64,000 nucleotides of DNA from Heterodontus francisci (Eukaryota), in the NCBI RefSeq assembly GCF_036365525.1, contig NC_090393.1:20693195-20757194 (forward strand). Reading direction: 5' to 3'. The stretch's first letter is position 1; the number at the start of each line of letters is the position of its first letter. Shown piece by piece: positions 8,978 to 47,000 of the stretch. The translations under genes and the position numbers were made by a program. A model generated the notes under the pieces. The model worked only from the letters and a program-made list of their open reading frames with translations, had not been told where the DNA came from and made no database searches.

Positions 8978-9020
8978 GGTTCCAGCTTTCACACAATGTG
9001 AGGTTGGTGTGACCGCAGTT

Positions 9021-13640: not shown

Positions 13641-13664
13641 GAGAGGAGGGAGCCAGAGACACAG

Positions 13665-13856
13665 CCAGATCGGATTGTTTCCCGAGAGTGGCAGAGAAAT
13701 CACGGAGCAGTTGAAGCAGAGAGAGTTTTATTCACTCATTGCAGAGAATCGGTGTGAAGGAAAACAGAAAAAACAAACTGCGCAGGAAAAGTGAATCAGA
13801 CACGATTCTACAGAACAACTTCTGATTCACCTGGGCTTGTGCTTCCAGCAAGGATT
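13665..13856 (+). other. ISG15: ISG15-A non-coding exon 1 (start approximate); intron 13857-14857
   Basis: Homologous to 53475-53636; donor |GTGAGG; branch CTGAC and acceptor tcaacag| at 14857. A 5'UTR intron is typical of fish ISG15. Confidence 0.6.
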
Positions 13857-14869: not shown

Positions 14870-15337
14870 ATGAGACTCCAGGTGAAGTTTATGACCGGTG
14901 AGATTATCGAACTTGTGATCGACCCTTCCATCCAAGTGTCGGCTCTCAAGATGTTGATATTTGAAAAGAGCAAGGTGCCCTATTTCCAACAGCGTCTGAT
15001 GGTGCAAAACGGGAGCAGTGTGGAGCTGAAGGATGACAAGAGGCTGTCCGACTACAATGTCTCTCCCAGCGACGCTGTCCTGCTGCTTGTCAAGAATGAG
15101 CAGTGCATGCAGATATTCCTGCAGAATGACAAGGGGAAAACATCTACATACGACGTTCTTCCCTCTGAGTCAGTTCAGGCTTTTAGAGCACGAGTACAAC
15201 GGCAGGAGGGTGTCCCAGCCAACCAGCAGCGCCTGATGTATGAGGGGAAACAGCTGGAAGATGGTCGATTGCTCTCTGACTACAATATTCAGCCTCAGGG
15301 CACCATCTTTCTCCTGCTACGTCTACGGGGGGGTTAA
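14870..15337 (+). CDS. ISG15: ISG15-like di-ubiquitin protein copy A, 155 aa, ends LRLRGG*
   Basis: Two UBL domains; FQQRL in N-lobe, [16 protein letters not shown] in C-lobe (fish ISG15-like); aagATG just after the splice acceptor. Confidence 0.9.
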
Positions 15338-16206
15338 CTTGAACTTATAGCGGTTAATCAGATGAACTATAGATATTACAGAAATAAGTTATTTATAGTG
15401 CCAATTCATCAACTTTTTTCATAACTCCTGTTTTCTAATGCGCAGTTTGTAAGAGGCCAAGATTGCACAGTCACTGACATGTCCAATACACTTTTGGTTC
15501 TTATTCCTGTCTGCCCTGCTTTAGTTTATAACAGGGGGAAGTTTGGTCACCTGTTACTGTCTGGCTACAGAATGATGGCGATGGAGGCCTGGGTGCAGCT
15601 CACCTTCCTGCATTCTCAGCTAGGAAAGGGTGCTGATATAAGACACTGGATGCAATTTTTACAAGGAACAGCAGCATAATTAACAGCGCAGAAGATATCG
15701 GGAGACTAGTAAAGCAATCTGTTTGATTCTGATCATTGTCCTCTGATACTTCTATTGAAATCAAGCTTAGACCCATAGGCCAAAAGTATATTCTGTTACC
15801 CTTAAGGATTCTGTTGAAGAGCTGGACTAATCTCAATCTAGCGAGTGAGTCTCTGACGAGTCCACAGCTCAAAACTGGCCTTTCATTCGGTACTAATTCA
15901 CATTCTCAGAGGCCATGATAGCTGATGTGGCATTTCCAAAATGTTACACTCGGCAGGAGAGACCATGCCAAAAATTCCCCATACAAAGATCAACAAAGAT
16001 TGTCTGTCTGCTTTACTTTAAAATGATTCCAGGTAGTCTGTAAATAATTGCTTTAACCTTAATGTGTTCTGGGAGAAATGTATGTGTTCAGCATTGGAAT
16101 GTTTTAATCTGAGTGCTTTCCATTTTACAATAGCAGATTATATCAGGCCTGCAATTTGTATCTGGCAAAATATCCAATGTTGTTTGAAAGTAAAGCTGTT
16201 CATGTT

Positions 16207-16212
16207 AATAAA
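16207..16212 (+). terminator. Candidate polyadenylation signal of ISG15-A
   Basis: AATAAA inside a 3' block conserved with the third paralog, which has AATAAA at 57515-57520. Confidence 0.45.
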
Positions 16213-17480
16213 AAACAAAATCAGTTTTTATAATCTGTCTGAATTGTCTGTGGCTCTGCCTGCGTTACATCCGGGATCTGTATTTAAACCCAATTTAAGA
16301 TGATTTACCCGAACCAAGTGTTGATTCAAGAATCAGCTGTGAATGAGGCACCTTTCAATGTCCAGGAATCACACCAACCCCGATCACTGTTCCATATTTT
16401 CCACTGTTGAATTATATTATACCGGTTGATTTCCTGTGGCCTTTCACATGACATTTTAGAGAATATGGGCAGGATTTTTAGGTCCTTGTGTGGGTGAGAA
16501 CTGAGGTGGGTGGCTGCTAAAAATAGCCAAAAAATGAATGGTACTGATGCATCCTGGGAAATTAGGTACACTGCACATGCTCAGACTGCACAATCTAAAT
16601 GGTTCTCACAGCACCACAGCTTTGGGTAAAAATAGCAAATGCAAGCCCAGGCTTTTGGGAGAACAATAAAGGTTTACAACGCAGAAATATTGGCCTATCA
16701 TGTCTGCATTGACTGTTTGCTGAACTATCAAGTAAAAATGTTAATTAAGGCAGCAAATGATACAAAAGATAATTCCACTGATTAAATTAGTTATAACAAT
16801 GAAATATGTCTTTAGAATTGTCTTTTGCTCTAGCCCCTATTTTGAACATTAGAAATTTTGACATGGCATGTTTCTTATTCAAACACCTGCCCAGATGCAC
16901 CTACTTGGGACAAGGGCATTACTGAGGCAGAGAGGATGTCACTCAGTGACTCACAGAGCACTAGTGAGCAGGTGGCAGTCCAAGAGGTCAATGCAGCCTC
17001 AAGACATCAGCAAGAGGCTCACAGAGCAGTTTTGTTTCTGGAGTGGCGCCAATGACTGCTTACATAGATGGCCAGAAGAGGCAGTAATCACAGGGCTTTG
17101 CTGGAACTATTCAACCTGCTCTCACACAGACTATTAGTTCAAATGAGCCCATGTTCAGAATTGGTGAACTGTAAGGAGTGGTCAGAGAAGTCACTGCTTT
17201 TTATGGCAATGACGTGAGTCTCAGATCAAGGAAGTGTTTTTCCAGGGAGGCCTCCTGCTACTTCAAAATGGGTGAGGCATAAAGTGGAACAGTAGAAAAG
17301 GGTGAGGGGAGAGCGGAATGGAGTGGAGCACAAGCAAAGAGTGGTACAGTAGAAAAGGGAGATCGTTGAGTCTGTGAGCAGCATGGTAAAGAAAATTCAC
17401 AATGTGACATCACAGCACAAGGAGGGAAGGCAGGGTAAGTTACAGGTAAATATCAATTTAATCTATAACTTAGACTATAT

Positions 17481-18506
17481 TGTTATGACTGAGGCAGGAG
17501 GAGTGCACTGTTTATTCTAGTTCCACTTCTCCACGATCACAACATATTTATAAACTTTTTCCCGCTTACCGATACAGTCAATCATAGACTCTATTTGTAT
17601 CCCAGAATAAACACACCAACCAGGTTTCTTTAATCAATGACAAAATTAACAGTTTATTATAAAAGAATTTTTATCCAGTAATGAAGTAAAGCATAAATAC
17701 ACAAATTGAAATATTCAAGTTCCCTTTTTATCTTCGCTCCCCATACACATACACCGGTTAACGGGAAAAATAAAGGGATTTTTGTTTTAGGGCTCTATTA
17801 GACAAAAAAACACTTGGGTTGAATACTTGCTCATTCTTGAAGAAACAGCAGATGAGATATGTTGTGTTCCAAAACTGGCATACAGTCTGCCTTCAAAGTA
17901 CACGTAGATGGGTCACTGGGATCTTTTAGAACAGTTCTTTTAAGGCAGTGTTGATAACTAATTTATCAGGCTTTTCTTCAAAGACAGGAGACACGATGAG
18001 TTGACACAGTGGACTTCTCAGGGTCTTTTAGCGATGTGCTGGAAAGCTGAGCTTGGTTATGGTCTTCTCTTGTTTGTTGGGAATTCTATTTTCTCCTTGG
18101 AGGTTCTCTCCCTTTTGATACAGTTCAAACCCAACTCAAAGCAATTCAAAAGCAAAACCGACAACAGGAGGTCAACTTTTGACCGCCATCCAGCTTGACG
18201 AGTCACTTCTTTGTAAACAACTTCTCCAGGTGTCCAAAGTGCTCTGTTGTTTATTGAGCTAGAAGTCAGGTGGTTTCCTGGAATGGCTTGTTGTTTCTGC
18301 AAGTCAGGTGGTTTCTCAGAAAGGCTTGTTTGCTTCACAAGACCTCTCAGTGCCCCTTTTAAAAAACATTTCCAGGGACTGTTTTCAACGCCGACTGCCT
18401 TTACGTGACTCCCTTTGAAAACCCCAAAGTTTAACATTTCTTCAATCTTTCAAAAATGAATCCTCAAAAAATACATTTAACAAAACACAGAGGGACTTTT
18501 GCAACA
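17481..18506. mobile_element. Solo LTR with 4-bp TSD; copy at 46218-47244
   Basis: TGTT...AACA termini flanked by ATAT on both sides. Confidence 0.7.
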
Positions 18507-18975
18507 ATATCAAGTAATTATCTTAAAGACTAAAAAAATGCTAAGTTGTTTCAATACATAAGCTTTAAATAATTAAATAAATAAGAAAATATTGTGTGGG
18601 AATGACAGAGCGGGTGGTGTGCTGCAACTGTGGGAGTTTGTGGACAGCATTGTAATAGCAGACATCCACATCTGCAGTAAGTGTCTGCATCCTGACCGCG
18701 GCACCATGGTCCAAGAAGCCATTTAAGGGGGGGTGGGTGTGGAGGTGAGGAATGTGGCAGCTGTAGAGGACAGTATAGTCAGGGGGATTGATACTGTTCA
18801 ACAGGGAGTTCCCAAGGTTGCATTACCTGCCCAGTGCCCCAGCTAGTTCCTGACACACTGATCTTGAAAACTTTTCGGAATGCATTCGAGAAACACATTC
18901 TCCACATTATTACTTCAACTTTGTTTGGCCAGTCTACATGACAAGATTAAAGTCTTCCATGATGAAAGACTCATA

Positions 18976-26845: not shown

Positions 26846-28562
26846 CAGGCTGAAAGTAAAGAGCCTTTAAACCCCTTTATCAACACATAGCTATCTCTGA
26901 CCCACCTCAAGGGAAAAGGGGCTGTTTGAAGCAGCACTGCTACAAAGGAAAGACAAGCTGAAACAATTTCTAAGATTTCTGAATGAATGCGAATGAATGA
27001 GAGAAATGCATGTGTGCTTTCCTGTACTTTCTCTCCCTTGTAATTTATAATGAAATGCTCCCCTAATGTCATTCGGCGAGGGTGGACGTATGACAGAAAT
27101 CACACCTGCCAAATGGAAACATATTAATTTTGCCATATGGGACACAACTTGAACTTTTTTTTACTGGACATTGCACAGAATTTGTTTCTTTTTAAAAAGA
27201 ACTGAGCGGCTGAAAACATGTTGCACATTTGCATTCTGTGAGAAAGTTGAATCGAGAGACGATGGAAGTGCTCACTGATTCAATTAACAAGATTGGTCTG
27301 GGCAACAGTGATGATCCACATCTTGTCTGTGTAAGAGACACCACTTCACCACCCCCTCCAACCGAGTGTCTGGGAGACTCTGAAGTCCAACAACCCTCTA
27401 AGAAGTTGCTATTTCAAACAAAGAGATGGTCACATGACTTACCTGCTGGCCAAACTGGGGACAGTTTGAATTGTGCCATACAGAAAGGTAACAGACTGTA
27501 ATTTGAAGACAAAAGAGAAGGAAGGTCTCTCCCTGTCTCTCTCTCTCCAGCAAAGTCCCAGGGACCCACAGTAGCAGCTTCAGCCTCAAGACAGAGCACT
27601 TCTTCAGCCTTCTGGTACCAGAGAAGCAAGTTGGAAATTGTGCACTGGGCCCCAGCAAGAACTCCAAGACTTCAGTTTTTATCAAGGACATTTCCACCCA
27701 GTAACTGAAATTCCTTTATTACGAATTCTACTTCAACAGCCATGCCCGCCTAATTCTTTCCTCCCATCTGTATCTATTTGTATGTGTGCTTCTCTCATAT
27801 GCATGCTAGCATGGTTGTGTCCCGTATTTTAGTAATTTTAACCGCTCAGGCTAATAAACTTACATCTTTCTTGTTTAAACCTATGAAAACCTGTCTGATT
27901 GGTTCATTTGCAATTACAATTAAAGTGCAGTGAGCAAAAGGCTCTCTGAGGGGTGAAGCTAAGATCACTGTGTTTTAAAAGATAAACCCTGTTACGGCCA
28001 AACCAGGAAGGGGGCAAGAGGGGAGGCTGAGACCCCTTCCTCAGCTGGCAATAACATATATACAATTCACTTGACAAATAATCTACTCACTGTACCTTCA
28101 AACGCATGTCCGTAGATTAATAATTGAATTTCTTTCCCTCCTTTAAACCCGGATAATAAATGACCACAACAACAACATGGTTGCTAACATTAAATCAAAG
28201 AATTAGGGTTTATTTACACACTCTTAAACTTGGGAAGGGGTTTAACTTCGCTATGCACACTGACAAACATTCAGGGAAAGGCTAAAGGTATAACAAGGCA
28301 AGGACACTTACTAAATAGAACTATAAGCTAACATGAATTTCAGTTAAAACTTGTGCACATTGAAATTATCAGAAAGAGTCCAAAAATTGGAGATCACCGA
28401 TTGGAAATGCCGAATTGGGGAGGAGCTATTGGAAATTTCTCTTCTCTTACAAATTTCTTCTTCTTTGCACTCTCAAAGGTAAATGAGGTAGCTTAATTTG
28501 GCTGTAGTCACCTTTTTCTTAGATAGAGAGGATGCTAGCAGAAAGCAGGATTTCTTACTATC

Positions 28563-28708
28563 TTTGCAGACTGTATCTTTCATCTTCGTCGCTGTTTGCA
28601 GTTTTGGGTCTTCTTTAATTTTTTGGCTTTTGCAGACTATGTCTTTAATTTTCTTTGATGTTTGCAGTCTGTGTCTTCTTTAATTTTTCTGGCTTTCTGC
28701 AGCCTGTG
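28563..28708. repeat. Degenerate minisatellite, about 33-bp unit
   Basis: Recurring TTTGCAG....GTCTT(CTT)TAATTTT, 4-5 units. Confidence 0.55.
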
Positions 28709-29424
28709 CCTTAGCGAGAGGTGTGCAGGTTCATGCAGCTAGACTACACTGCCCCAAAGGTAGCTGTGTATTGGAAATAGGCTATACCTTCAAACTGTTA
28801 CAGTTTCCAGTCCAGGCAAGTTGGACAGGGGTTTCCTGGGTCCTAAGACTAGACCCTATTCAAGTTGCTTTCCCACCTGATCTCTCTCCTCCATTTTGAC
28901 AATTGGAACAAAGAAGTAAAAACTTAAACATGATGTATAAAATGGTGGTTGACATTAATACTCAGATGCACAATACACAAGTTACAGGGAGTTCTCATCG
29001 ATTCGTGACACGGTTAATGACAGTAAATGAAACATGTTCTATGAATGAGCAAAATCAGTTGAAGAATCTATCGTATTTTAAAGGAGCTTTATTTATTCTG
29101 CAGTTGGCAACAGAATTGCTGTCAATACAAAACATAAAATAAATGTAAATGATCTTTATTCGGTCAACTAACATTCTTCAATGACTAATGGTTTAACATA
29201 GATGTTTCAGAATGCACAGGATCACCTCCATTTTAAACCTTCCTTACGTTTTATCTCATTCTGCACATGAATTTTATTTAAATCGTAAGCATTTTCAGAT
29301 ACAGGCTGATCAGTGGCAATGATTAATATGCAGTGTATATAGTTGAAACTAATTCTGATTCAATTCAGTTGATACAATGCAATATTAAAATTCAATTTAA
29401 AGTTATTAGTATTGCTATTAATTT

Positions 29425-29877
29425 TCAGATCCCCCTGCCACCACGGAGACGCAGGTTGATGTTGATGGTACAATGATGCTTAATTTTGTAATATTCCAGT
29501 GTGTATCTGTCATCTAGCTTCATCGTCTGAAAGGTCAGGTAGTACTGGTGTGACGGAATGCGCTCCAGGGATTCAATTTTATTTTTCAGACTCAAAACTG
29601 TGTCAGTTGGCAACACATTAATTGTCAGGTTACGTCCCTCTGCATTCTTAACGAATATCTCCATGAATAAGTGGAGTGTTGCATCAAAGAATATTCCAGA
29701 CTCCAGCAAGGATTTGTTGTCAATGAGCATGGTTTCATTAAACCTCAGGCGTTGCTTGTGAGCTGGAATGTTCTGGTCTTGCTGGATTCGTTCCTTGATC
29801 ATTGAGATCTTGTTGTCAATGTTGACATTCAGGCGAAATGAGAAACCGTCCAGGCCGATGACAAAACCCTTCACTGG
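29425..29877 (-). CDS. OASL: OASL-B exon 6: tandem UBLs, LRLRGG-RGI
   Basis: Acceptor cttag|CCA; 18 substitutions versus A. Confidence 0.88.
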   Translation of the reverse strand, partial: PVKGFVIGLDGFSFRLNVNIDNKISMIKERIQQDQNIPAHKQRLRFNETMLIDNKSLLESGIFFDATLHLFMEIFVKNAEGRNLTINVLPTDTVLSLKNKIESLERIPSHQYYLTFQTMKLDDRYTLEYYKIKHHCTININLRLRGGRGI

Positions 29878-32800
29878 CTAAGACGAGAACAAAACAGAAG
29901 ATAGAAATTTTTTTGTGGGGTGGGGGGGGGCAGCAAAAGGCAGTCAGTGATGTTCTTTTTTCATAAGTTTTTCAATAATTATATTTCCCTAATTTTCTTG
30001 CTGTCTCTCCTGATTGATTCTTGCTGGGGTGATAACCAGACTCCAGTACCTCACAGAAATGGCCACTGTTCTTGTATAAGCTCAGACAGTAAGTGTTGTT
30101 CACCATTCAACAAAGTCTGATCCTGTACTTAACTGATGATCACACACGTACAATATATGGTCAGTGGGAATCTCAGCTGCTTCTTTCCCCACCTCCCATG
30201 CAGGGGTGCTGAGGCCAATTGTAGCAGTCCCACGGTCACCCAGCTGACACCAGCTAATTCAATACGGACTGAGGATTGAAGCTGCGGAGTTTCTGACTTT
30301 CCATATGCCTTTAATACTTGACAGCTGGGCTATGATTACCAGCCCAAATGAAAAGAATGAAATATCCAATTAAGGATTGAGGTAAGTGATGAGAACAATG
30401 GCCTTTCACCTCAGTGATCTGAATTCCGATCTATTCTCGACAGAAGCAACTCTGGGATCTAACAACACAATCTACGGAATTTCTACTATAGACATTGCCT
30501 TGTATCAAAACGTTATCATTTATTAAAACTGTTTTACCTGGACATCCCATTCTCGGACTCCAGAGACACATAGCATGTTCAAGCATTTCATGGCCTCATT
30601 TACCATCACGTCCCATCCAGTAGATGAAGCAACATTTCCAGTTGGATCAGCTGGGTCAAGAATAATTGGCCTGAAAAATAAAAAGGCCAGAGTTTGCTGG
30701 AAACTGATGGTGAGTTTAATGATACTCTCTGTTATTAGTGTGGAAATCATCCAGCAATTCTGTTGCAAGGAAGCGATACCCATGAGTTGCCCATTGCTAG
30801 AAACTGCTGGTCGATTTGAGCTGCTCTGTCAATAGCTTCACTGTCAACCTCCCTGTGCAGTTCAAGAAATTGCTGCATTTGTGTATTATTTAGGAATTAA
30901 CCTCATGCAGAAAGTCAGTGTTCCAACACAGCCACCTGCCTGCCCTGCCTCCAGACTGCACAAAACAAGGTGATGTTGGCTGTGTCAAGCTGGGGAATGT
31001 TGCCCAGAATCTCACTAAGGGGCCTACTCAGAAAAAAATAAATTCTGCCTTCATTCCTCTTCTGCTCATCAGAAAACTGGCACACCATTTCTCACTCAGT
31101 ATATTGATCTTCCAACTGGGTCCCTTTGAGGCCAAGGATACATGAAATTACAGCCTAGAGAGTTCTTACCCTCAGCCTCAGCTTTGTCAGTGGCCTTGTG
31201 TGGGCCAGGAAGGGGCTCCAGTCCCTAATTCTGGAACCATTTAAGAACCAATAGACACGACAGAGAAGGGTCTTTCTGGATGGGTGATTTAAGATGGATC
31301 GTACGGCCTTCCTGATCCGTAATTCTATTGTGATATTGTAAATTGCAGCAATTTGCATTTATATAGCACTTTTAATTTCATAAACATTCCCAGACATTTC
31401 AGACAGAAGAAACAGATGCTGAGCAGGAATAGAATCCGAGGATCTGACCAAAGGTTTTCAGGAGGTTATTGAAAGTGGGAGAATTAGTAGAGGTGAAGAA
31501 ATTTCTGGAGAGTTCCATAAAGTGGGACCAAAATGGCTGCAAGCTTTGCTACTGATGGCAAATAAGAGGAGGTTCAGGGGGAATGAGCTGGAACAATGGC
31601 TGGAGGAGGTTGCAGATCAAGTGTAGGATGAAGAGATGAGTTGGTAATGAGATTTGTAAATAAGGGTAAAGATTTTAAGACCTTAAAAATTAGTTGAGGA
31701 AGGAACTACAGCAGAATATTTGGTGGGAGTTAAACACGGGCCGGAATTTTACATTGGGTGGGAGGCCCTGCCCACTGGCTGAAAAGTCGATGATGAGTGT
31801 GCCTCCGCTGGGCCTGGGAGCCAGGCTGGGATTTTACAATCCCCAGGTCCTAAACTGGTCTTGAGTGGGATTTCCACCTCCTTGAGGCAAGAAGTCCCAC
31901 CTAATGGAGCTGCCGGCCAATCAGTGGGCCGGCAGCTCTTAGTCCCAACAGCACCACCAGGAGCACTGCTGGGACTACACCCTGCCATTGGAGGCAAAAG
32001 GAAGGATGGTCCTGGAACTCAGGTTAAGTGTTTAGGACCTCGCCGGGGACAATTGGCCGGGCCCTGGCGAGGCAAGTTAGTTGGGTGGGGGTGGGGGGAG
32101 GAGAGTGTTGTGCGTTGGGGGTGGTTGGAGCTTCTGGGTAGCCCTCTGAGGGGCATAGGGTGCCCAATTAGGAGAGCCCACCCCCAGCCTGCAAGAAGGC
32201 CACGTTGTTTAACCAGGCAGGGTTCTTGGGGCATTTGCCATCTGGCCACCCGGGGTAAAATATCCGTGGTGGCGGGAGGAGGCCCTTAAGTGGCAGTTAA
32301 TTGGCCATGTAAGGGCCTTGATTGGCCTGGGGTGGGCTGGCCGTTTCTCGCCTCTGCCGCCCTGTGTAAAATTGCCGTGGGGGCGGAACGGGGTCAGGAA
32401 TAGTAACCCCCCACCTCCCACTCAATTTTACACCCCCTCCACTGCACACCTCCCCCCCCCCGCCCCACCCACCACCACCAGCCTGCTCAATGTGGGGGCA
32501 TAAAATTCCAGCCACAATCTTGCATTACAATGTAGCATTGTCAGGACTGCTGCCTCTTAGGCACATTTTCATACTTGAACTGTGTGTCAGGTTGACTCTC
32601 ACTGCTAATATTGAGCTGCACATCCATCACATTCAAATAGCGCAGCCAACATGTCACTTATTTGTCACCCATGATGCCAAAGTTAAGGACAAATATTAAC
32701 CATCAAGTGAACTGGACCCCAAATATTTCTTGAATCGGCCCCGTTACTTGGGAGCTGTTCAAAGAAGTGAAGCAGCTCTAATTGGTATAGTTTCAAACAT

Positions 32801-35800
32801 GGTTGAAGATTTTACCTGTTGCCACTCAGTTTCTTTATTAGAAAGTCTGCAACGACTCTATTATTGACATCGTACTCCTTGGTCCAGTAGATGCACAGCT
32901 CCTGATATCTGCAGATCAGTTTCAGGACTGTTCGGAAACCATCAGCCATGACAAATCTTTCCTGTCCACTTCCTTGCTCCCAGGCATAAATAGTCAGCAG
33001 CTCCACTGCATACTTAGCAGGCAGGCGTGCTCCAGCTTTCAGCTCAGATTTCCGTGGCTTCACATACTAGGGTAAATGGTTGACAAATATAAAGACAGAA
33101 ATGTGATATTTCAAATATTCACTCCTCCACCCATCCTGTATTTTTGTTTCCATGCTGTTATCTTTTATTATTCTAACCGGACCAAACAACTTCCCTGATA
33201 GTACCAGCCGGGGATATACCCAGCCCAATACTGCTGTATAAGCATTCGCTAAGAAGTCCACCACATCTGCCCAGAATGGCCCTCATTCCAACTCTTTCTC
33301 GTTCCATTGGATGAACTGCCTAATCTCTGCACAAAGATAAGGCTGAGAAGACAAACTCTCCATGTGGAAACTGTAGACATGAACCTATAGAATAGTGGGT
33401 TGGAGAGTCAGGAGTCAAAAGAAAGGAAGTTCTTGGAATTAGACTGAACTGAAATTGGGCCTCGGGCATTATCAGCAAATTGCTGGGAATCTGCGGATGC
33501 CAATCAGATATAAAACAGCAGCTCATAGGCTCCAGGAGACCAAAGTTGGGCCAGCTGCCTCTCCAGGAACGGCCATCAGATAGTGAGAGGGTGGGAGGTA
33601 GGTGATGGTGGGCCGGCAGCAGTCTTCAGGAATGCTGTGGAACTGGGAGAAGTTCTAGGAAGTGCCTCTTGGCTCCACATAAAGACAAGTATAAAAAATG
33701 TACTTACATTGAGGCCACTTGTCGACGCAAAAATCTGAAGGGGAACAGATCCGATGCGTACGTCACGTCCTTAAAGAGCCATTAGGCCCCTCATTAATAT
33801 AGTCAAGGAGCCGAGCGCCTGTTTTGAACAGCTGCCCAGGATACTGTAAATTGTTTGAGGCCATTATAGCATTGGACATATTTCAGGCACCTTTGGTGTT
33901 GATTTTTGTGCGTATTTCCACTGGAAAAATAGCACAAGTATCAATTTCTAACTCATTGTTTTTCAATTGATCCCTCAGTTATGAACTAACTTTTGTTTGA
34001 TTCTCTTTTGCTGTGAATTCTAGAGTTACTTGGCAATGGAAGATTGGATGGAGCCTTTGGTTGTAAATTGAAGGATACTGATGAAAAATGGAGAAGGTCA
34101 CTCTAAGACACACTGTTCAGGGACTGGGTGAAAAGTAAAAGATTTCAGGGTAAAAACCCTGATCCTCACTCCAAATGGGAAGCCATGGTCGAAGGATTGA
34201 GGCTCCATTTCTGACCTGTTTCTCAGTCCACAAAATATGGGATCAGGGCATTTGCTCTTTAATTGCTTTGAGAATCAAGATCTGGTCTAACATGTGTTCA
34301 ACCTAAACCATAAGATGTACAGGAGTTCTCCCCTTCTTCCAAATTATTTTCAACAGAGGAGAAGCAAGAATCTTTAATTATTCCAAATACTGACACTGAC
34401 TTTCTATGGGTTTGTCAACCTCCAGTTGTAATTTCAGTGGAGACTGGTGGAACTCCCAGAGAAACAGCACAAATGGACATTTCTCCAAAAGGTTTGGCTA
34501 TCTCCCACCATGCAATCATTCCAGGTTTTCATCTGTAGTGTTTGTCAATGGAGTAGCTACTGGTGGAAGTCGAGACACAGAAGGAAGCAATCTTTTTATT
34601 TTTGGTGTAACAATCCTCCCAAATCCTCCAAGCATTAAACAACTTCCATGTTCCCCAATCACTCACCTGTTTGTACCAATATTTTAGCAGGCGAATCAAG
34701 TCTTTAAGTTTTGAAGGACGTTGCTTCACAAATTTTCTCTGAAGCTCAGTAAAACAGGCCGAAAATTCCCCATTTACATCTTCATTTTCATTTACAAAAT
34801 TGATCAGCTCGAGATGGGCTACACTTGCATTGTCCTGTCCCACTGCAAGATATTAAATGATTAATGAACATCTTCCTGCACTTGCAAGTGTATCAGAAGA
34901 CAGGTACTCAACAAAAGCAATCCAATTAGATCATTACTCTAATAGACCATTTATATCTGCTTTTTAGTGGATGCTTCCTAATTTATTTAATCTCATGAAA
35001 GCTTCTCACATTCCCAAAGGTGCCCACAATTAGGTGTCTATAGGTAGAGCCATAGAGTCATTTACGGCGTAGAAGAAGGCCATTCACATCCCATCCCACA
35101 GTAAGAGGATTGATACTTGACCTGGTCCAAAGTATCTGCAGAGCAAGAAGGTCCCAGGTTTTAGTCCTTATCTCAGCCAGGGTAGCAGTGGATAACTACA
35201 AGTGATCTCAGTGTCCCTGGTTTGGGAAGTGATATAAAATATAGTCAAATATAGTAGTTTTTTGATACCTGATCACTACCCAGTGACCCCTTCTGGAAAG
35301 TGTACTACGTGTGGCCTTCAGATACCAACATAGGAATTCGGAGCAGGAGTTGGCCACTCGGCACTTTGAGCCTGCTCTGCCATTCAGTAAGTTCCTGGCT
35401 GAACTGACTACTCCACATTTCCACCTACTCCTGATAACCTTCCATCCCCTTGCTTATCAAGAATCTATCTTCCTCTGTCCTTAAAAATATTCAAAAACTG
35501 TTTCCATTGCCTTTTAAGGAAGAGAATTCCAAAGACTCAGGACCCTAGAACATAGAACATAGAACATTACAGCGCAGTACAGGCCCTTCAGCCCTCGATG
35601 TTGCCGACCTGTGAAACCATCTGACCTACACTATTCCATTTTCATCCATATGTCTATCCTCTGAGAGAAAAAAATCTCTCTTAAATGGGCAACACATCTC
35701 TTTTCTCACCCTTTGCCCTCTCTAACAGAACACAAATACTGCCAGACATACTGAGTCTTTTCAGCATTTTCTGCTATTATTTCAGATTTCCAGCATCCAC

Positions 35801-38230
35801 GGTATTTTGCTTTTGTTTTGCTGTTGACACTCTTGTCTTGGTATGAGAAATGATCAGCTGGGAAAAGTACCAGGGCTTTTTGGTGGATAAGAAACTGAAT
35901 CACTTCCTTTAGAAAAGGAGGGAATAGAACGATTCTCAGACATTAACTTAACGAAACAATCCTGGGTCGATTTTCAGAGTTATTATCTGAGACTTCCCAT
36001 CATCATCATTGTGTTAACGCCAATGTTAAAATGATGCCAATCATAAACTGGGGCTAATATGCCTCATGACTTCTCCTGTTAAGGGTCCGCAATATATCTG
36101 TGATAGTCTATTGTATCTGATCCTATCAGAAAAGCGAATTGAAACATATTCCTCCCAACAACAACTCTAATAATAAATGGAACTCAGCTCTGCATCATCT
36201 GAACTAGGAACAGAACATGTGATGGAGCAAAGTGGATAACGTGCACTTTATTCCCGTCTTTCTTGATGAGTAGCAGAGGTTCATTGAAGAATTTAAATTA
36301 AACTGGAGCTTTAATGATATAAATTGTTATAAATTCTTACTTAATGCATCAAAGGTTGGCAAAACATCAAAATTCACACTGCCTGAATTCTTCTTTGATT
36401 TCAGTGTGAAGCTCATGGATTTTGGCGGGATGCCGCTGTTCTGTGTTATAGTGATATTGATATCACTGATCTCATACGCAATGCTTGATTTACATATTTC
36501 CAGTATTTGCTGAATTTCCTCAAGAATTTCATGCCTGGTTTCCCTCTGGTCCTGGAAACTCTTGAAACAACTGAGGAAGACGACCAGATCCGCATCTGAG
36601 CCCTCTCTTAAAGCTGTTCCTTTCCCTGATGATCCTCCCTGAGGAGAGGAGGAAGAATAAAGCATTATTTATGTATTATTTATATTTCAGATACTGGTGA
36701 ACTTACCCATTCCTTAAATATTGCATAAAGATAACGCCATTTGTTTTCTTCAGTCTTGAACAATCAGGCTCTCTGTATCATTGCTTTGAGCTCGGAATTC
36801 ACACTGATACAATGTTTGCTGCCACTTTCCTTTTGATCTTTTCCCTCTTGCCCTCTTTTCATGAAGCTGCTGACTTGCTGAGACAGTTTCACGAGCTCTC
36901 ATCAGCAATTCCCCGAATTATCTATTCTTCATATGTGGTCTTTGGCCACAGGTGTCAACAGGCTATTCAACTATGCCGAGAATCGCAACTCAATTTTGTC
37001 CTGTACATATAAAGTAGACTTTCAGCAAAGGTGACTGGAAAGTGAGCAGGATTGGGGACCCTGGGCTGATAGTCCTTCTTACCGAGTGTGTTGTGGTCAA
37101 TTTTAACACCTACACCTGTCATCAACAGAGTGGTTTTGCCCTATTTGAGGATTTGGGGAGGGGGGGGGGGGGTGCGGGAGGGCTTGGTTTAATTCCTTGC
37201 CTTTCCCATCTTAACCACTGACAGAGCCAGTGCTAAGTCAGAATCTGCTAAATAACTTTCTGTTTAAGCATGAGAATAAAATCATAAGATGCAAACCACG
37301 TCTTTCTCTCTTTCTCTCTCTCTGACATTTTACAAAGTGAACAGCTTTTAATAGGGGTGAAGCCACTAACTAACATTTCGCTCAGGTCTGTTCTCGCCTC
37401 CTTTCCTTGTACAAGAGTAAATGTGACATATTCACGATGTTGTTTCTTCACTGCAGCTGACTGGAGACGGGGTGAATGGAGACTGAATTGGAAACTCACA
37501 TTACTGTATCCCTTTAGAATTAAAATTGTTTTAAAAGTGTGTTGTCACTTTAAGAATTCGAACTCTTGTTGATTTTGAGGAGCATATTTAAAGCATGTTG
37601 TACTTTTGACAGCGGTACATCTCAATGAAGTTCTTTAAGAGGAACAGATTTGAAGTAAATGTTCCCTTTAACTGAAGTACATCGAAAGGCACAGAACCTT
37701 TAAAACAAGCAGGTCAAAAACATTCTGTCCCTTCGGGTAAAAAATCCCCATTTGGTCCAGATTTTCCTGGAAACATGTGACATTCGACATCTACACAGAA
37801 TTCCCAAGAAATGATGGCGATCCCGTTAATTTAGATGAGATACTGGAGGCAACTGGCACTGGTGGAACTGAATCCCACAGCGAGACCACAACATCTGGAG
37901 AAAAGGGAGTTTAGCGCAGAAAACAGGAAATTTAATGTTTCAAAATGAGCAATCACGAGAAAACATCTCCATACTTAAGCAAGGCAAGGTACCTGATATT
38001 GAAAATAGTAATTTATTGTAAACACTAGTAATTCCATAATCTCCATGAAAATAACTTACTTTAACAGCTCTGATCACTTTGATCGTGGGTTGTTTGATAA
38101 AACATCGATTCCTTAAAAAATCGCAGATTCTGTGCACTGCGTTCCTCACTTTGATGTTAAATTCATTTGGTTCCAGGTTATTTTTAATGAAATCGTCCAG
38201 ATTCCTGGGTTCAGTTTCGTATAACCCCAT
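29425..38230 (-). CDS. OASL: OASL-like gene copy B, 493 aa; join complement(38060-38230, 36341-36638, 34667-34842, 32816-33066, 30538-30670, 29425-29877)
   Basis: Same exon sizes and splice sites as copy A; catalytic motifs intact; ends [10 protein letters not shown]. Confidence 0.93.
30538..30670 (-). CDS. OASL: OASL-B exon 5
   Basis: [13 protein letters not shown]; two substitutions versus A. Confidence 0.92.
32816..33066 (-). CDS. OASL: OASL-B exon 4
   Basis: One substitution (F>S) versus A. Confidence 0.92.
34667..34842 (-). CDS. OASL: OASL-B exon 3
   Basis: Same peptide and splice sites as A. Confidence 0.92.
35547..35657 (-). mobile_element. Short CR1-type 3' end inserted only in OASL-B intron 2
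   Basis: (AGAACAT)3 tail, flanked by CCT duplication; empty site at about 6571 in unit A. Confidence 0.65.
36341..36638 (-). CDS. OASL: OASL-B exon 2
   Basis: [16 protein letters not shown]; one substitution (N>S) versus A. Confidence 0.92.
38060..38230 (-). CDS. OASL: OASL-B exon 1
   Basis: Same peptide as copy A; accATGG; donor GTAAGT. Confidence 0.9.
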
Positions 38231-38273
38231 GGTTCCAGCTTTCACACAATGTGAGGTTGGTGTGACCGCAGTT

Positions 38274-38489
38274 CCTTATAAACCAGTTGCCGCGCCTTCT
38301 TTAAATATTCCAAAAATAGACGCAATTATTAAGACTTTCCAACAAACAAATGACATGCTGTCCATCAATGATTTGGATCTCCACCCAGTTCAAAGTTATT
38401 ATTTGCAGCTGATTCCACATCAACCGAAAATCCGTTTCAATTTCCTCAGAAATTTCGCTCTGTTGAATTAGCTTTCAGTTTCATTTCTC
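38274..38489 (-). promoter_or_regulatory. OASL-B promoter with TATA-like box and ISREs
   Basis: GGAAATTGAAAC (38434-38445) and GAAATGAAACTGAAAGCT (38470-38487) on the minus strand. Confidence 0.75.
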
Positions 38490-38899
38490 CAGTTAGCATA
38501 GGATGATAATATCGCGGTGGCTCCGTTACGTGCGGTCCGCACAGGCAGACCACCACAGTTCATGGCAGCGGACAAGTAAAATGCAGCCCAATATCTTCTA
38601 ATGTGGCTTGGTGTCATGTTTTGTTCAAATGCTCCTGTGAATCTCCTTGGGACATTTTATTATATTAGAGGTGCTCTATAAATAAAGGTTGTTGTTGTTG
38701 AAACATCAATTTACATGTCCTTCCTCAAAGCTAATACAAAATATTTGCTGCTCACGCTGCAGTCTCCTCTGCATTAGTGAAACCAATTAGCAGATTAGGT
38801 GATCGCATTGCTGAACGCCTCTGTTCTGTCGACTAGTGTGACATCAAACTCCCGGTCATTGGCCAATCCATCCCATTTCCACTCACACTCAGGCCACTC

Positions 38900-41421
38900 G
38901 ATGGAAAGATGGAAAGGTAACAGGGTTGTAGTGGTGGGTGATTTTAACTTCCTCTATATTGACTGGGACTGGGACTCATTTAGTGCTAGGGGCTTGGATG
39001 GGGCTGAATTTGTAAGGAGCATCCAGGAGGGCTTCTTGAAACAATATGTAGATAGTCCAACGAGGGATGGGGCTGTACTGGACCTGGTTTTGGGGAATGA
39101 GCCCGGCCAGGTGGTCGAAGTTTCAGTCGGGGAGCATTTCGGGAACAGTGACCATAATTCCATAAGTTTTAAGATACTTGTGGAAAAGGATAAGAGTAGT
39201 CCTCGGGTGAAGTTGCTAAATTGGGGGAAGGCTAATTATAACAATATTAGGCAGGAACTGAAGAATTTAGATTGGGGGCGGCTGTTTGAGGGTAAATCAA
39301 CATCTGACATGTGGGAGTCTTTCAAATGTCAGTTGATTAGAATCCAGGACTGGCATGTTCCTGTGAGGAGGAAGGATAAGCTTGGCAAGTTTCGGGAACC
39401 TTGGATAACGCGGGATATTGTGAGCCTAGTCAAAAAGAAAAAGGAAGCATTCGTAAAGGCTGGAAGGCTAGGAACAGATGAATCCCTTGAGAAATATAAA
39501 GACAGTAGGAAGGAACTTAAGCAAGGAGTCAGGAGGGCTAAAAGGGTCATGAAAAGTCATTGGCAAACAGGATTAAGGATAATCCCAAGGCTTTTTATAT
39601 GTATATAAAGAGCAAGAGGGTTACCAGGGAAAGGGTTGGCCCACTCAAGGACAGAGAAGGGAATCTATGAGTGGAGCCAGAGGAAATGGGCAAGGTACTA
39701 AATGAATACTTTGCATCAGTATTCACCAAAGAGAAGGACTTGGTGGATGATTAGCCTAGGGAAGGGAGTGTAGATAGTCTCAGTCATCTCATTATCAAAA
39801 AGGAGGAGGTGTTGGGTGTCTTGCAAAGCATTAAGGTAGATAAATTCCCAGGGCCTGATGAGATCTACCCCAGAATACTAAGGGAGGCAAGGGAAGAAAT
39901 TGCTGGGGCCTTGACAGAAATCTTTGCATCCTCATTGGCTACAGGTGAGGTCCCAGAGGACTGGAGAATAGCCAATGTTGTTCCTTTGTTTAAGGAAGGT
40001 AGCAAGGATAATCCAGGAAATTATAGGCCAGTGAGCCTTACGTCAATGGTAGGGAAATTATGAGAGAGGATTCTTCGGGACAGGATTTACTCCCATTTGG
40101 AAACAAACCAACTTATTAGCGAGAGGCAGCATGGTTTTGTGAAGGGGAGGTCGTGTCTCACTAATTTGATTGAGTTTTTTGAGGAAGTGACAAAGATGAT
40201 TGATGACGGAAGGGCAGTGGATGTTATCTATATGGACTTTAGTAAAGCCTTTGACAAGGTCCGTCATGGCAGACTGGTACAAAAGGTGAAGTCACATGGG
40301 ATCAGAGGTGAGCTGGCAAGATGGATACAGAACTGGTTCAGTCATCAAAGACAGAGGGTAGCAGTGGATAGGTGCTTTTCTGAATGGAGGGATGTGACTA
40401 GTGGTGTTCCGCCGGGATCAGTGCTGGGACCTTTGCTGTTTGTAGTACATATAAATGATTTGGAGGAAAATGTAGCTGGTCTGATTAGTAAGTTTGCGGA
40501 CGACACAAAGGTTGGTGGAGTTGCAGATTGTGATGAGGATTGTCAGAGGATACAGCAGGATATAGATCGGTTTGAGACTTGGGCGGAGAAGTGGCAGATG
40601 GAGTTTAATCTGGACAAATGTGAGGTAATGCATTTTAGAAGGTCTAATGCAGGTGGGAAGTATACAGTAAATGGCAGAACCCTTAGGAGTATTGACAGGC
40701 AGAGAGATCTGGGCGTACAGGTCCACAGGTCACTGAAAGTGGCAATGCAGGTGGATAAGGTAGTCAAGAAGGCAGATGACATGCTTGCCTTCATCGGTCG
40801 GGGCATAGAGTATAAAAATTGGCAAGTCATGCTGCAGCTGTACAGAACTTTAGTTAGGCCACACTTAGAATATTGCGTGCAATTCTGGTCGCCACACTAC
40901 CAAAAGGATGTGGAGGCTTTGGAGAGGGTACAGAAGAGGTTTACCAGGATGTTGCCTGGTCTGGAGGGCATTAGCTATGAGGAGAGGTTGGATAAACTCG
41001 GATTGTTTTCACTGGAACGACGGAGGTGGAGGGGCGACATGATAGAGGTTTACAAAGTTATGAGCGGCATGGACAGAGTGGATAGTCAGAAGCTTTTTCC
41101 CAGGTTGGAAGAGTCAGTTACTAGGGGACATAGGTTTAAGGTGAGAGGGGCAAAGTTTAGAAGGGAAGAGCGAGGCAAGTTCTTTAGACAGAGGGTGGTG
41201 AGTGCCTGGAACTTGCTGCCGGGGGAGGTGGTGGAAGCAGGTACGATAGCGACGTTTAAGAGGCATCTTGACAAATACATGAATAGGATGGGAATAGAGG
41301 GATACGGTCCCCGGAAGTACAGAAGGTTTTAGTTTAGGCAGGTATCAAGATCGGCACAGGTTTGGAGGGCCGAATGGCCTGTTCCTGTGCTGTACTGTTC
41401 TTTGTTCTTTCTTCTTTCTTC
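38900..41421 (+). mobile_element. 5'-truncated CR1 LINE specific to unit B
   Basis: Endonuclease GDFN/LDLVL/SDH and RT DFSKAFD, GSVLGP, FADD; disrupted by stops and frameshifts; empty site CCACTC|TATCTTTGG at about 12693 in unit A. Confidence 0.92.
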
Positions 41422-42165
41422 TATCTTTGGCCTTCTACGTTGTTCCAATGATGTTCAACATCGGTTTGAGGAACAGCATTTCATTGAGACACGTGGTAGT
41501 TCTCTGGTTTTAACAGCTTGAGGAGACAGCTCCCATTTTCGCACATGGAAGTAGGTGCTGGACATGTGGTATAGATTTGCTGCTGTTTCTGGAGTGGGCG
41601 GGGAGAGGGGGCAAGGTGCAGGTTGGAACCTCCCTCAGAACAGTAATGGTACAGTGGTCTGCGGCCTGAGGAACAGGGCTAAGGCATAGCTGGTCAGAAT
41701 TTCCAACACTGATTAAGTTTATGGAGGTGCCTTCCATGCTGTAAACATTGTACTCCTAATCTGAAGCAACAAAGGAACATGAGAAACATAGAAACTTGGG
41801 TCCAGAACAGCAGTTAAAGTGAGCAAGTGTCAGGATATTAGGATAGATTTGTTCACTGGAGCACTCTTGCAGCTTGAGTACCCAGCATGACATGGAAGTG
41901 ACCCTGACCCTACAATGTGGGATGTGATCCTTGGCTTTGTGTTGAGACAGGGAAAGGGGTTTCGCTCCACCTCTCTTGTCCTGCTGGAGTGAAACTGCTG
42001 GAATTTGAGGCCCGGAGGTTTTCATGAGATAAATTAATTGATTGGTGTGATGCACTGTATTTTCATATGTTGTATTGTTCAAGCCCTGACTACAGGAAGC
42101 AGGTCCTCTGCGTCACATCTCAGCTGATGCTACTCAGCTGATGTTATTTTTGACTGTGGCAGCAA

Positions 42166-42375
42166 GAAAGGAACCTGAAAGTGAGAGAGATGGGAGCCCA
42201 GTAGCTGTTACCTGGAGCCAGGTTCTCTCTCTGCTGCTGACTGCAATGTCATTTCCCGGACACAGAGGGGAGTTTTGGGGAAATGAAAGTTGTTTGTTAT
42301 AATAGAGCCGGAGATGTCAGGCAATCAGAGTACAGCAGGGCTGTGACGTTCAGAAAGTGGGTCTGACAATAAAAG
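42166..42375 (+). promoter_or_regulatory. ISG15-B promoter
   Basis: Copy of 13431-13640; GAAATGAAAGT at 42280-42290; non-coding exon ends 42591, acceptor at 43592. Confidence 0.6.
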
Positions 42376-43604
42376 GAGAGCAGGGAGCCAGAGACACAGC
42401 CAGATCGGATTGTTTCCCGAGAGTGGCAGAGAAATCACGGAGCAGTTGAAGCAGAGAGAGTTTTATTCACTCATTGCAGAGAATCGGTGTGAAGGAAAAC
42501 AGAAAAAACAAACTGCGCAGGAAAAGTGAATCAGACACGATTCTACAGAACAACTTCTGATTCACCTGGGCTTGTGCTTCCAGCAAGGATTGTGAGGTAG
42601 CCTGTCTTTTATTTAGGAATCCCAATATTCTAATTCTAAACTTTAAAATGGGATGTTTTGAAAATTAATGAAATACACAGTTTAAAATAAGTTATTATTA
42701 TTATCTGAACCGGGAGAGGAACATTTTAAAAATGCAACCTGTAAGTTACTGTAGACAATATTAAGCAACGTCTGCTATAATGCATGAAGTATTTATTATC
42801 TAATATTATCAGGATAATTCCTTGTTTTTAAATAGAATGGCTGAGTCTGAGATGAACCATTTCTGTACAGGATAACTCTCTGCTGAGTGGTTTTTACATA
42901 ACTGTACAGATTTCATTCATGGACCACTGTATCAAAGAAAACATTCTACTCAATGCAAGGGTGCTTTTCTTGTCTATTGGACTAGAGGTGTCCTGGCTTC
43001 TGGTTCAGAGAGTTATATGGGTGGTTTCTTTAATATGATCCTGAAACTCTGTGGCCATTTTCCTCCATTTACACACATTCTCTAGATTCTGCTGATGACT
43101 TGCTGAGGTTATGGTGGAAGATGAGGAGAAAACCCACAGAATTTCTGGGCCCATGTTTTTATGTCCCCATTAACCTGAGTCTCAGACTCTGAAATGTTAC
43201 ACTGAAAGCTTCTTCAGGCGGCTGACCAGTATTGCAACTCAGTAACCAGCAGACCCTCGAGTTTCTGAAGATTTTATCAATGTCAGGATAGGGCAGCAAA
43301 GATACAACCAAATGCAAAAGGCAGAACAGATTGGAAATCTGCCACTTTTTCTTGGCTGGAAGTAAAGAGTTTGGGAAGAATATTGGTTCCTTCGGGATTC
43401 AGATGTCAATAGGAAGGAAGACTTGGGGATTAGTGTAGGTGAACCTTACACAAGAATTGATCCCAGCTTCTGTCTGTACAGCTAATGCTTGGGAGAATGT
43501 GTTGTGAGTTTTAAATTCTATCATTTATTCCTTGCAATTGATTTGTGATATAAAGTGTCCACATCACTGACATCCTGTTCATTTCTCAACAGCAAGTGAA
43601 CAAG

Positions 43605-44072
43605 ATGAGACTCCAGGTGAAGTTTATGACCGGTGAGATTATCGAACTTGTGATCGACCCTTCCATCCAAGTGTCGGCTCTCAAGATGTTGATATTTGAA
43701 AAGAGCAAGGTGCCCTATTTCCAACAGCGTCTGATGGTGCAAAACGGGAGCAGTGTGGAGCTGAAGGATGACAAGAGGCTGTCCGACTACAATGTCTCTC
43801 CCAGCGACGCTGTCCTGCTGCTTGTCAAGAATGAGCAGTGCATGCAGATATTCCTGCAGAACGACAAGGGGAAAACATCTACATACGACGTTCTTCCCTC
43901 TGAGTCAGTTCAGGCTTTTAGAGCACGAGTACAACGGCAGGAGGGTGTCCCAGCCAACCAGCAGCGCCTGATGTATGAGGGGAAACAGCTGGAAGATGGT
44001 CGGTTGCTCTCTGACTACAATATTCAGCCTCAGGGCACCATCTTTCTCCTGCTACGTCTACGGGGGGGTTAA
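43605..44072 (+). CDS. ISG15: ISG15-like copy B, 155 aa, protein identical to copy A
   Basis: Only two synonymous differences from 14870-15337 were seen. Confidence 0.9.
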
Positions 44073-47000
44073 CTTGAACTTATAGCGGTTAATCAGATGA
44101 ACTATAGATATTACAGAAATAAGTTATTTATAGTGCCAATTCATCAACTTTTTTCATAACTCCTGTTCTCTAATGCGCAGTTTGTAAGAGGCCAAGATTG
44201 CACAGTCACTGACATGTCCAATACACTTTTGGTTCTTATTCCTGTCTGCCCTGCTTTAGTTTATAACAGGGGGAAGTTTGGTCACCTGTTACTGTCTGGC
44301 TACAGAATGATGGCGATGGAGGCCTGGGTGCAGCTCACCTTCCTGCATTCTCAGCTAGGAAAGGGTGCTGATATAAGACACTGGATGCAATTTTTACAAG
44401 GAACAGCAGCATAATTAACAGCGCAGAAGATATCGGGAGACTAGTAAAGCAATCTGTTTGATTCTGATCATTGTCCTCTGATACTTCTATTGAAATCAAG
44501 CTTAGACCCATAGGCCAAAAGTATATTCTGTTACCCTTAAGGATTCTGTTGAAGAGCTGGACTAATCTCAATCTAGCGAGTGAGTCTCTGACGAGTCCAC
44601 AGCTCAAAACTGGCCTTTCATTCAGTACTAATTCACATTCTCAGAGGCCATGATAGCTGATGTGGCAATTCCAAAATGTTACACTCGGCAGGAGAGACCA
44701 TGCCAAAAATTCCCCATACAAAGATCAACAAAGATTGTCTGTCTGCTTTACTTTAAAATGATTCCAGGTAGTCTGTAAATAATTGCTTTAACCTTAATGT
44801 GTTCTGGGAGAAATGTATGTGTTCAGCATTGGAATGTTTTAATCTGAGTGCTTTCCATTTTACAATAGCAGATTATATCAGGCCTGCAATTTGTATCTGG
44901 CAAAATATCCAATGTTGTTTGAAAGTAAAGCTGTTCATGTTAATAAAAAACAAAATCAGTTTTTATAATCTGTCTGAATTGTCTGTGGCTCTGCCTGCGT
45001 TACATCCGGGATCTGTATTTAAACCCAATTTAAGATGATTTACCCGAACCAAGTGTTGATTCAAGAATCAGCTGTGAATGAGGCACCTTTCAATGTCCAG
45101 GAATCACACCAACCCCGATCACTGTTCCATATTTTCCACTGTTGAATTATATTATACCGGTTGATTTCCTGTGGCCTTTCACATGACATTTTAGAGAATA
45201 TGGGCAGGATTTTTAGGTCCTTGTGTGGGTGAGAACTGAGGTGGGTGGCTGCTAAAAATAGCCAAAAAATGAATGGTACTGATGCATCCTGGGAAATTAG
45301 GTACACTGCACATGCTCAGACTGCACAATCTAAATGGTTCTCACAGCACCACAGCTTTGGGTAAAAATAGCAAATGCAAGCCCAGGCTTTTGGGAGAACA
45401 ATAAAGGTTTACAACGCAGAAATATTGGCCTATCATGTCTGCATTGACTGTTTGCTGAACTATCAAGTAAAAATGTTAATTAAGGCAGCAAATGATACAA
45501 AAGATAATTCCACTGATTAAATTAGTTATAACAATGAAATATATGTCTTTAGAATTGTCTTTTGCTCTAGCCCCTATTTTGAACAATAGAAATTTTGACA
45601 TGGCATGTTTCTTATTCAAACACCTGCCCAGATGCACCTACTTGGGGCAAGGGCATTACTGAGGCAGAGAGGATGTCACTCAGTGACTCACAGAGCACTA
45701 GTGAGCAGGTGGCAGTCCAAGAGGTCAATGCAGCCTCAAGACATCAGCAAGAGGCTCACAGAGCAGTTTTGTTTCTGGAGTGGCGCCAATGACTGCTTAC
45801 ATAGATGGCCAGAAGAGGCAGTAATCACAGGGCTTTGCTGGAACTATTCAACCTGCTCTCACACAGACTATTAGTTCAAATGAGCCCATGTTCAGAATTG
45901 GTGAATTGTAAGGAGTGGTCAGAGAAGTCACTGCTTTTTATGGCAATGACGTGAGTCTCAGATCAAGGAAGTGTTTTTCCAGGGAGGCCTCCTGCTACTT
46001 CAAAATGGGTGAGGCATAAAGTGGAACAGTAGAAAAGGGTGAGGGGAGAGCAGAATGGAGTGGAGCACAAGCAAAGAGTGGTGCAGTAGAAAAGGGAGAT
46101 CGTTGAGTCTGTGAGCAGCATGGTAAAGAAAATTCACAATGTGACATCACAGCACAAGGAGGGAAGGCAAAGTAAGTTACAGGTAAATATCAATTTAATC
46201 TATAACTTAGACTATATTGTTATGACTGAGGCAGGAGGAGTGCACTGTTTATTCTCGTTCCACTTCTCCACGATCACAACATATTTATAAACTTTTTCCC
46301 GCTTACCGATACAGTCAATCATAGACTCTATTTGTATCCCAGAATAAACACACCAACCAGGTTTCTTTAATAAACGACAAAATTAACAGTTTATTATAAA
46401 AGAAGTTTTATCCAGTAATGAAGTGAAGCATAAACACACAGATTGAAATATTCAAGTTCCCTTTTTATCTTCGCTCCCCATACACATACACCGGTTAACG
46501 GGAAAAATGAAGGGATTTTTGTTTTAGGGCTCTATTAGACAAAAAAACACTTGGGTTGAATACTTGCTCATTCTTGAAGAAACAGCAGATGAGATATGTT
46601 GTGTTCCAAAACTGGCATACAGTCTGCCTTCAAAGTACACGTAGATGGGTCACTGGGATTTTTTAGAACAGTTTTTTTAAGGCAGTGTTGATAACTAATT
46701 TATCAGGCTTTTCTTCAAAGACAGGAGACAAGATGAGTTGACACAGTGGAGTGCTCAGAGTCTTTTAGAGAGGTGCTGGAAAACTGAGCTTGTTTATGGT
46801 CTTCTCTTGTTTGTTGGGAATTCTATTCTCTCCTTGGAGGTTCTCTCCCTTTTTATACAGTTCAAACCCAACTCAAAGTAATTCAAAAGCAAAACGAACA
46901 ACAGGAGGTCAACTTTACACCCCCATCAATCTTGACGATTCACTTCTTTGTAAACAACTTCTCCAGGTGTCCAAAGTTCTCTGTTGTTTTTTGAGCTGGA

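Follow-up and report, generated by a model that had tools for sequence, protein, structure and literature searches.

Two OASL genes that are nearly identical over most of their length lie in tandem in the window studied here, which is the whole stretch of 64,000 nucleotides from contig NC_090393.1 of Heterodontus francisci (positions 20,693,195 to 20,757,194). Their amino acid differences are concentrated in the last ubiquitin-like domain, UBL2. The question is whether this concentration reflects selection on the surface of the domain or the age of the sequence that encodes it.

The window contains a tandem duplication with unit A at 266-18927 and unit B at 29230-47665. In each unit an OASL gene on the minus strand is placed head-to-head with an ISG15-like open reading frame (ORF). 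Rebuilding the exons gave six in each OASL copy, all flanked by AG/GT, with a reading frame of 493 codons and a stop. Copy A occupies 461-8977 and its frame is intact. In copy B exons 1-5 (38230-38060, 36638-36341, 34842-34667, 33066-32816 and 30670-30538, minus strand) encode the OAS part, and exon 6 encodes two UBLs. UBL1 is found at 29665-29877, UBL2 (residues 415-490, with the LRLRGG end) at 29437-29664, and a tail of three residues past the di-glycine, plus stop, at 29425-29436, all on the minus strand; UBL2 of copy A is at 473-700 of the same strand and is likewise followed by LRLRGG and three residues. The joints of exons 4, 5 and 6 are corroborated by the spliced contigs of a related organism in all four runs compared. 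In both copies, exons 3, 4 and 5 score above the cut-off of the PF10421 (OAS1_C) profile. The tandem character of the C-terminal UBLs is indicated by sequence only, as a match of exon 6 to the ISG15-like ORF across 134 residues (E 1e-14). In the NTase lobe the catalytic aspartates D72, D74 and D148 stand in the expected motifs, identified by motif and not by a profile scan of the lobe; those of pig OAS1 are given as D74, D76 and D147 (PMC6307210). The three residues past the di-glycine of OASL B may represent the tail of a pro-form, by comparison with chicken OASL (PMC8764230).

The two units also differ by large insertions. Copy A has a 3-kb insertion (9248-12291) 19 bases before its ISRE-like element and an insertion of about 2.2 kb in its 3′ flank (region 1-265), and a LINE-like ORF block is present upstream of B only (38902-41420). 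The ISRE-like element is located at 9220-9229 in A and is the same in B, upstream of OASL at 38473-38482 (minus strand); both were called against the ISRE consensus. An AATAAA at 29273 is present in B and absent in A. An OAS paralogue of greater age, with the same orientation, lies 21.5-29.3 kb before the window. Its exons show 47-60% identity, and after it comes nothing more than a weak UBL-like remnant (E 0.057). Between this paralogue and copy A, at about 10-17 kb ahead of the window, there is a tandemly repetitive block of 7 kb. A further OAS1_C match was obtained with PF10421 on another contig (77231773-77231976). Within the reach of these searches a third close donor for UBL2 was rejected, since exon 6 has two copies only in the genome search and PF10421 finds the older neighbour and the match on the other contig.

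ISG15-like ORF 1 (14870-15337, plus strand) and ORF 2 (43605-44072, plus strand) encode the same protein and differ by two silent changes; the gaps between them and their OASL partners are 8977-14870 and 38230-43605. A third ISG15-like ORF (56245-56718) ends with LRLRGG plus two residues. Its coding sequence shows 96% identity with ORFs 1 and 2, compared with 69-79% for the matching flanks, which suggests that conversion or strong constraint may be confined to the exon. If the head-to-head order is ancestral, the tandem UBL of OASL may derive from a duplicate of the neighbouring ISG15; among the papers listed in our literature search, none treated ISG15-OASL synteny in cartilaginous fish.

The concentration itself is confirmed. 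A sequence-only reading of the locus had counted four amino acid differences between A and B in the OAS part, two in UBL1, 15 in the 76 residues of UBL2 and one in the tail, with three purely silent codons in the last two parts, and had listed the clusters KHKIE>NLTIN, SRPLED>TMKLDD and SL>CT. Our recount agrees in every item. The OAS part (residues 1-343) has four replacement and no silent changes (4/1029 coding bases over 30538-38230), and UBL1, which is homogenised, has two and none (2/213 bases). UBL2 has 22 base differences, giving 15 replacement codons and two silent ones, and the tail has one of each; when the mutational paths in the codons hit more than once are counted, the three silent codons correspond to 4.5 silent steps. 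The excess in UBL2 is not due to chance (15/76 against 6/414 residues, P=5e-9). In the 414 codons of the OAS part and UBL1 we count zero silent differences between the copies. At the base level UBL2 and the tail differ at 24/240 positions, against 1.55% across 13,655 aligned non-coding bases; at the opposite end of the unit, one window of 240 bases without coding sequence has 24 differences too.

This high divergence continues past the gene. In the 3′ flank of copy B (29230-29424) 11/195 bases differ from A. Homology extends collinearly beyond 266 in A and 29230 in B, across the insertions of A, with 11/208, 29/409 and 49/426 mismatches; this outer paralogous flank (28127-29237) matches the A-side sequence just before the window, which is interrupted by insertions, with about 5-12% mismatches, far above the 1.55% of the body. 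The flank contains a dispersed repeat, whose best match is the paralogous place (93%, at most 88% elsewhere), and its last 200 bases match only there among 40 scored candidates out of 886, in a check that covered the blocks short of the outermost one. The far end of the unit (46700-47300) has 94% identity to A and windows diverged by up to 10%, with up to 24 differences per 240 bases, in a part that lies inside another dispersed repeat. The best breakpoint of a two-rate fit, from which a 36-base T/G tract was left out, is 29662 (support 29629-29689), which is the first codon of UBL2; 35/433 and 39/3380 bases differ on its two sides. The longest identical run between the copies is 915 bases, whereas the permutation mean is 380 and none of 2000 shuffles reached this length. 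The silent divergence of UBL2 (0.053-0.064) is approximately equal to that of the flank.

The body is thus much more alike than the paralogous flanks and holds long identical runs, the picture expected of concerted evolution. We suggest that the duplication probably has a neutral age of 6-12% and that its body was levelled later, presumably by gene conversion; one unequal crossover would leave the same pattern. Escape from conversion, added by the sequence-only reading as a contributing caveat, proves to be the main effect, UBL2 being part of the end that conversion did not reach in this old duplication. By this comparison the concentration of differences in UBL2 is mostly age. The peak of divergence described for opsins, with low divergence on both sides, is not seen between A and B, where divergence is high on the 3′ side.

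What age leaves to be explained is the kind of changes. The same reading had proposed diversifying selection, and the outcome is divided: the surface of the domain has moderate and partly post-hoc support, while dN/dS is not significantly above 1. For the A/B pair pN/pS is 1.7-2.1 in UBL2 and 1.35-1.7 with the tail (P 0.2-0.5), overall 1.35-2.14, non-significant under three transition weights. When four forms are pooled by hand parsimony, there are 25 replacement to 4 silent steps in UBL2 (P 0.05-0.14) and 37 to 6 in the whole gene as far as it is covered (P 0.03-0.12); the pooled dN/dS test restricted to the surface gives P 0.02-0.04 and is post hoc. None of the 21 core and tail positions varies (P=0.004 for A/B and 0.0007 for all forms), the core positions being those of ubiquitin. 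The surface of UBL2 has a pN of 0.14-0.15 against 0.063-0.081 in the flank (P 0.002-0.026, post hoc). For the whole domain the comparison with the flank is non-significant when the far block is included (P=0.17), and with the adjacent flank P=0.11. The oddity that matters here is that a domain whose core is frozen shows as much replacement divergence as the neutral level, or more. Ubiquitin positions 13, 35 and 49 each have three residues across the four forms, and an excess of repeat hits was not found (P 0.10-0.32). Between ISG15-like ORFs 1 and 3 we count 11 replacement and 8 silent changes, a ratio distinguishable from the pooled 25:4 of UBL2 (P=0.04), the A/B pair alone giving P=0.10. In the OAS part and UBL1, A, B and the relative together show 11 replacement changes for 1 silent one (P 0.12-0.22); hence, the whole OASL gene is replacement-rich.

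Sequencing runs, from the related organism and from what is probably the source sample of this genome, add further forms. Part of the stretch is contained in 15 of the 20 runs listed, six of which were compared through their contigs. The relative's main transcript is B-type: it differs from B at 5/240 bases of UBL2 and tail, where A differs from B at 24/240, so that orthologues are closer than paralogues in this part, and at 2/195 bases of the 3′ flank, against 11/195 for A (P=0.02). The separation of A and B thus probably preceded that of these organisms, and the two types are likely older than the species split. Over OAS exons 4 and 5 and UBL1, A and B differ at 5/597 bases and B and the relative's main form at 7/602. 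Between B and this form UBL2 does not evolve faster than the rest (5/240 against 7/602, P=0.34).

A second form of the relative, a contig of 122 bases, was found in two of its four runs, from two studies (X10 and X12). It has nine differences within 29600-29661, and this patch of 62 bases nearly coincides with the A/B cluster of the beta1-beta2 region (29600-29662, minus strand, ubiquitin positions 1-22). All nine are replacements and none is silent (P 0.05-0.09). The ninth letter was placed at 29661 from the contig ends; both sense codons that it could form give a replacement, and the remaining letter would make a stop. Five of the nine changes are the letter of A (P about 8e-6 under a rough model) and produce three A residues in the beta-2 cluster and one intermediate codon; the three listed non-A changes are new replacements. 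The contigs flanking the patch are unbroken on both sides, including the side of the edge, and low divergence on both sides fits this 62-base patch only. The second form was not seen in the contigs of X9 and X13, a blank that carries no weight because contigs drop rare variants.

Another mosaic comes from run X5, a sample that may be the source of this genome and is presumably RNA. A contig of 119 bases has all 12 A letters of 29468-29526 (minus strand, ubiquitin positions 47-66, covering the P130 loop with the equivalents of ISG15 P130 and E132), and B sequence resumes at either end of this tract. At 29556 the contig has the B letter, so that it corresponds to neither assembled copy. No full A-type contig is seen in X5 (four contigs) or X8 (one contig), which carries no weight for the same reason. 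Judged from contigs alone, the mosaic forms could be alleles or paralogues, and it is likely that two UBL2 types have been reshuffled between the copies.

The changed residues can be placed on the modifier surface. The neighbouring ISG15-like ORF has a C-domain to which the 76 residues of UBL2 align without gaps, 23-27 of them identical, and residues 80-155 of this ORF align to ubiquitin 1-76, their end level with ISG15 157. Conversion of UBL2 by ISG15 was rejected at this identity. The earlier assignment of one A/B site to ISG15 P130 is right: OASL residue 463 corresponds to ubiquitin position 49 and ISG15 130. The A/B sites fall on ubiquitin positions 1, 4, 12-14, 16, 35, 37, 47-49, 51, 60, 65 and 66, and those other than the ISG15 130 and 132 equivalents probably lie mostly on the beta1-beta2 face, which USP-type enzymes grip. 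ISG15 contacts its E1 via 123, 125, 130, 149 and 151, and P130Q is an ISG15-to-ubiquitin swap (PMC10693564); residues 89, 121, 130, 132 and 149-151 set the species preference of viral OTU proteases (PMC6927636). The proposal that the changes lie on the surface bound by E1 and deconjugases stands for two of the 15 sites (130 and 132), without enrichment: two of nine contacts are changed and 1.8 are expected. Two of seven OTU sites and one of five E1 sites are changed, counted on mammalian contacts that may not transfer. At the five E1 contacts UBL2 of OASL A (473-700) has Y, T, P, N and N, where human ISG15 has W, T, P, F and N and the ISG15-like ORF (43605-44069) has R, M, Q, F and L, nearer ubiquitin at the first and third; the OASL tail resembles mammalian ISG15 at these contacts more than the ISG15-like gene does.

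On balance we favour the following mechanism, which we consider rather probable. An old tandem duplication would have made A and B. Gene conversion would have levelled the middle up to the first UBL2 codon, and UBL2 would keep the old differences. The surface of UBL2 would diversify by selection with the fold and the LRLRGG end constant, and short conversion tracts would carry A-type patches into B-type backbones, producing new surface combinations. Conversion, which removes differences elsewhere, would at UBL2 shift surface patches between copies. OASL would be induced via the ISRE-like elements, lose its tail and be conjugated through the di-glycine in the manner of chicken OASL, and the binders of the last UBL would favour new surfaces. 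We rank viral deconjugases that bind the C-terminal UBL first among the possible sources of pressure, by analogy and as a supposition that falls short of probable; the choice of host E1 or USP, ranked second, would be an unlikely source. More tentatively, UBL2 might be a variable module in the style of MHC, in which two surface types that predate the separation of the species are maintained by balancing selection and recombined patchwise by conversion, so as to give a repertoire of conjugatable antiviral tags with a fixed E1-binding tail.

The step and the mosaics might also be a pure edge effect, in which conversion fades beside the insertions at the end of A, UBL2 records the age of the duplication on a weakly constrained surface, and the mosaics are neutral tracts visible only where the copies differ. 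Transposable elements and large indels are reported to terminate gene conversion (PMC3924837), and here homology is cut off by an insertion 195 bases after the stop codon; divergence is high at the two ends of the unit, at the far one without any coding sequence, the silent divergence of UBL2 equals that of the flank, and all whole-domain dN/dS tests are non-significant. However, this leaves the replacement divergence at or above the neutral level despite 21 frozen positions, the step falls at the domain start, and the relative's patch has unbroken flanks, also on the edge side, and zero silent changes. We regard the edge effect alone as rather doubtful. The decay of copy A, which as a silent gene would gather neutral replacements and be a conversion donor at most, would be in line with the 3-kb insertion so close to its ISRE-like element, with the missing AATAAA and with three replacements outside UBL2 (329, 353 and 355) that are private to A when B and the relative are compared. 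But copy A retains an intact frame, its splice sites, the catalytic aspartates and LRLRGG, core and tail are unchanged, and one neutral branch should not lift pN above the neutral level, which makes such decay very improbable.

Under a fixed specialisation A and B would be kept different by the enzymes or partners that each one uses in the host (choice of E1, maturation protease, or packing of UBL1 against UBL2), with selection blocking conversion as in the red/green opsins. Position 49, P in A and K in B, helps to decide between UBA1 and UBA7 charging of ISG15 (PMC10693564), the B type is maintained across two species, and position 60 may sit at the inter-domain interface when residues of chicken OASL are numbered backwards from its di-glycine (PMC8764230). 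Against this, position 49 is M in the relative and takes the A form within a B backbone in X5, which fits polymorphism better; A and B agree at the four remaining E1 contacts and in the tail, and P130Q alone gave no gain of UBA1 charging (PMC10693564). We consider specialisation distinctly improbable. An assembly artefact, with two haplotypes set in tandem, is hardly credible. The 1.55% divergence of the body is near allelic levels, and copy A is known from the assembly; nevertheless, the outer flanks reach 12%, well beyond the 1-2% that separates B from another organism, the insertions are specific to each copy, and A letters occur in independent contigs of the relative.

The favoured mechanism, with old differences kept in UBL2 and surface patches exchanged between copies, would be a further case of a known process, as divergence islands and the making of mosaics under conversion are already established. 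The locus is a clean case of conversion edges mimicking selection, with a striking concentration that is mostly age. If the surface types are indeed shared across species and recombine, they would point to a binder that has chased conjugatable OASL in a lineage which has kept ISG15, and they would provide natural variants at a residue that helps to set E1 choice. In the literature listings and abstracts searched, which include few subscription journals, we found no description of OASL divergence confined to UBL2 or of mosaic forms.

The closest counterpart in protein architecture is avian OASL (chicken, PDB 7SBI; PMC8764230), which shares the OAS unit with two UBLs, LRLRGG with a short tail, and the catalytic aspartates. 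Chicken OASL is conjugated, and its pro-form is cleaved by viral proteases in a species-dependent way. LRLRGG with a tail of the removable type is present in both copies here, and covalent conjugation of their UBL2 may be proposed on the chicken precedent. Birds lack ISG15, whereas here two near-identical copies adjoin ISG15-like genes. The NTase-OAS1_C-UBL order is shared with the ancestral OASa.U of jawed vertebrates, a family reported, Chondrichthyes included, to have undergone duplication, positive selection and, occasionally, gene conversion (PMC10400998; see also PMC6307210); the selected sites are described in PMC10400998 as dispersed along the genes, and the parts of that account considered here mention neither UBL2-limited divergence nor patch mosaics. 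With ISG15 and viral OTU proteases (PMC6927636) the present case shares variation at 130 and 132, the E/D change at 132 being a difference between human and sheep, but the other determinants (89, 121 and 149-151) are invariant between A and B and 13 of the 15 changes lie elsewhere. Red/green opsin exon 5 (PMC3924837) resembles UBL2 as a locally diverged coding segment in a homogenised pair, with orthologues closer than paralogues, while the high zone between A and B is one-sided and extends into the flank. The shuffling of MHC and R-genes (PMC3924837) likewise uses short tracts from paralogues to build mosaic surfaces of immune proteins; here, in two mosaics known at the level of contigs, the shuffled part would be a ubiquitin-like modifier domain.
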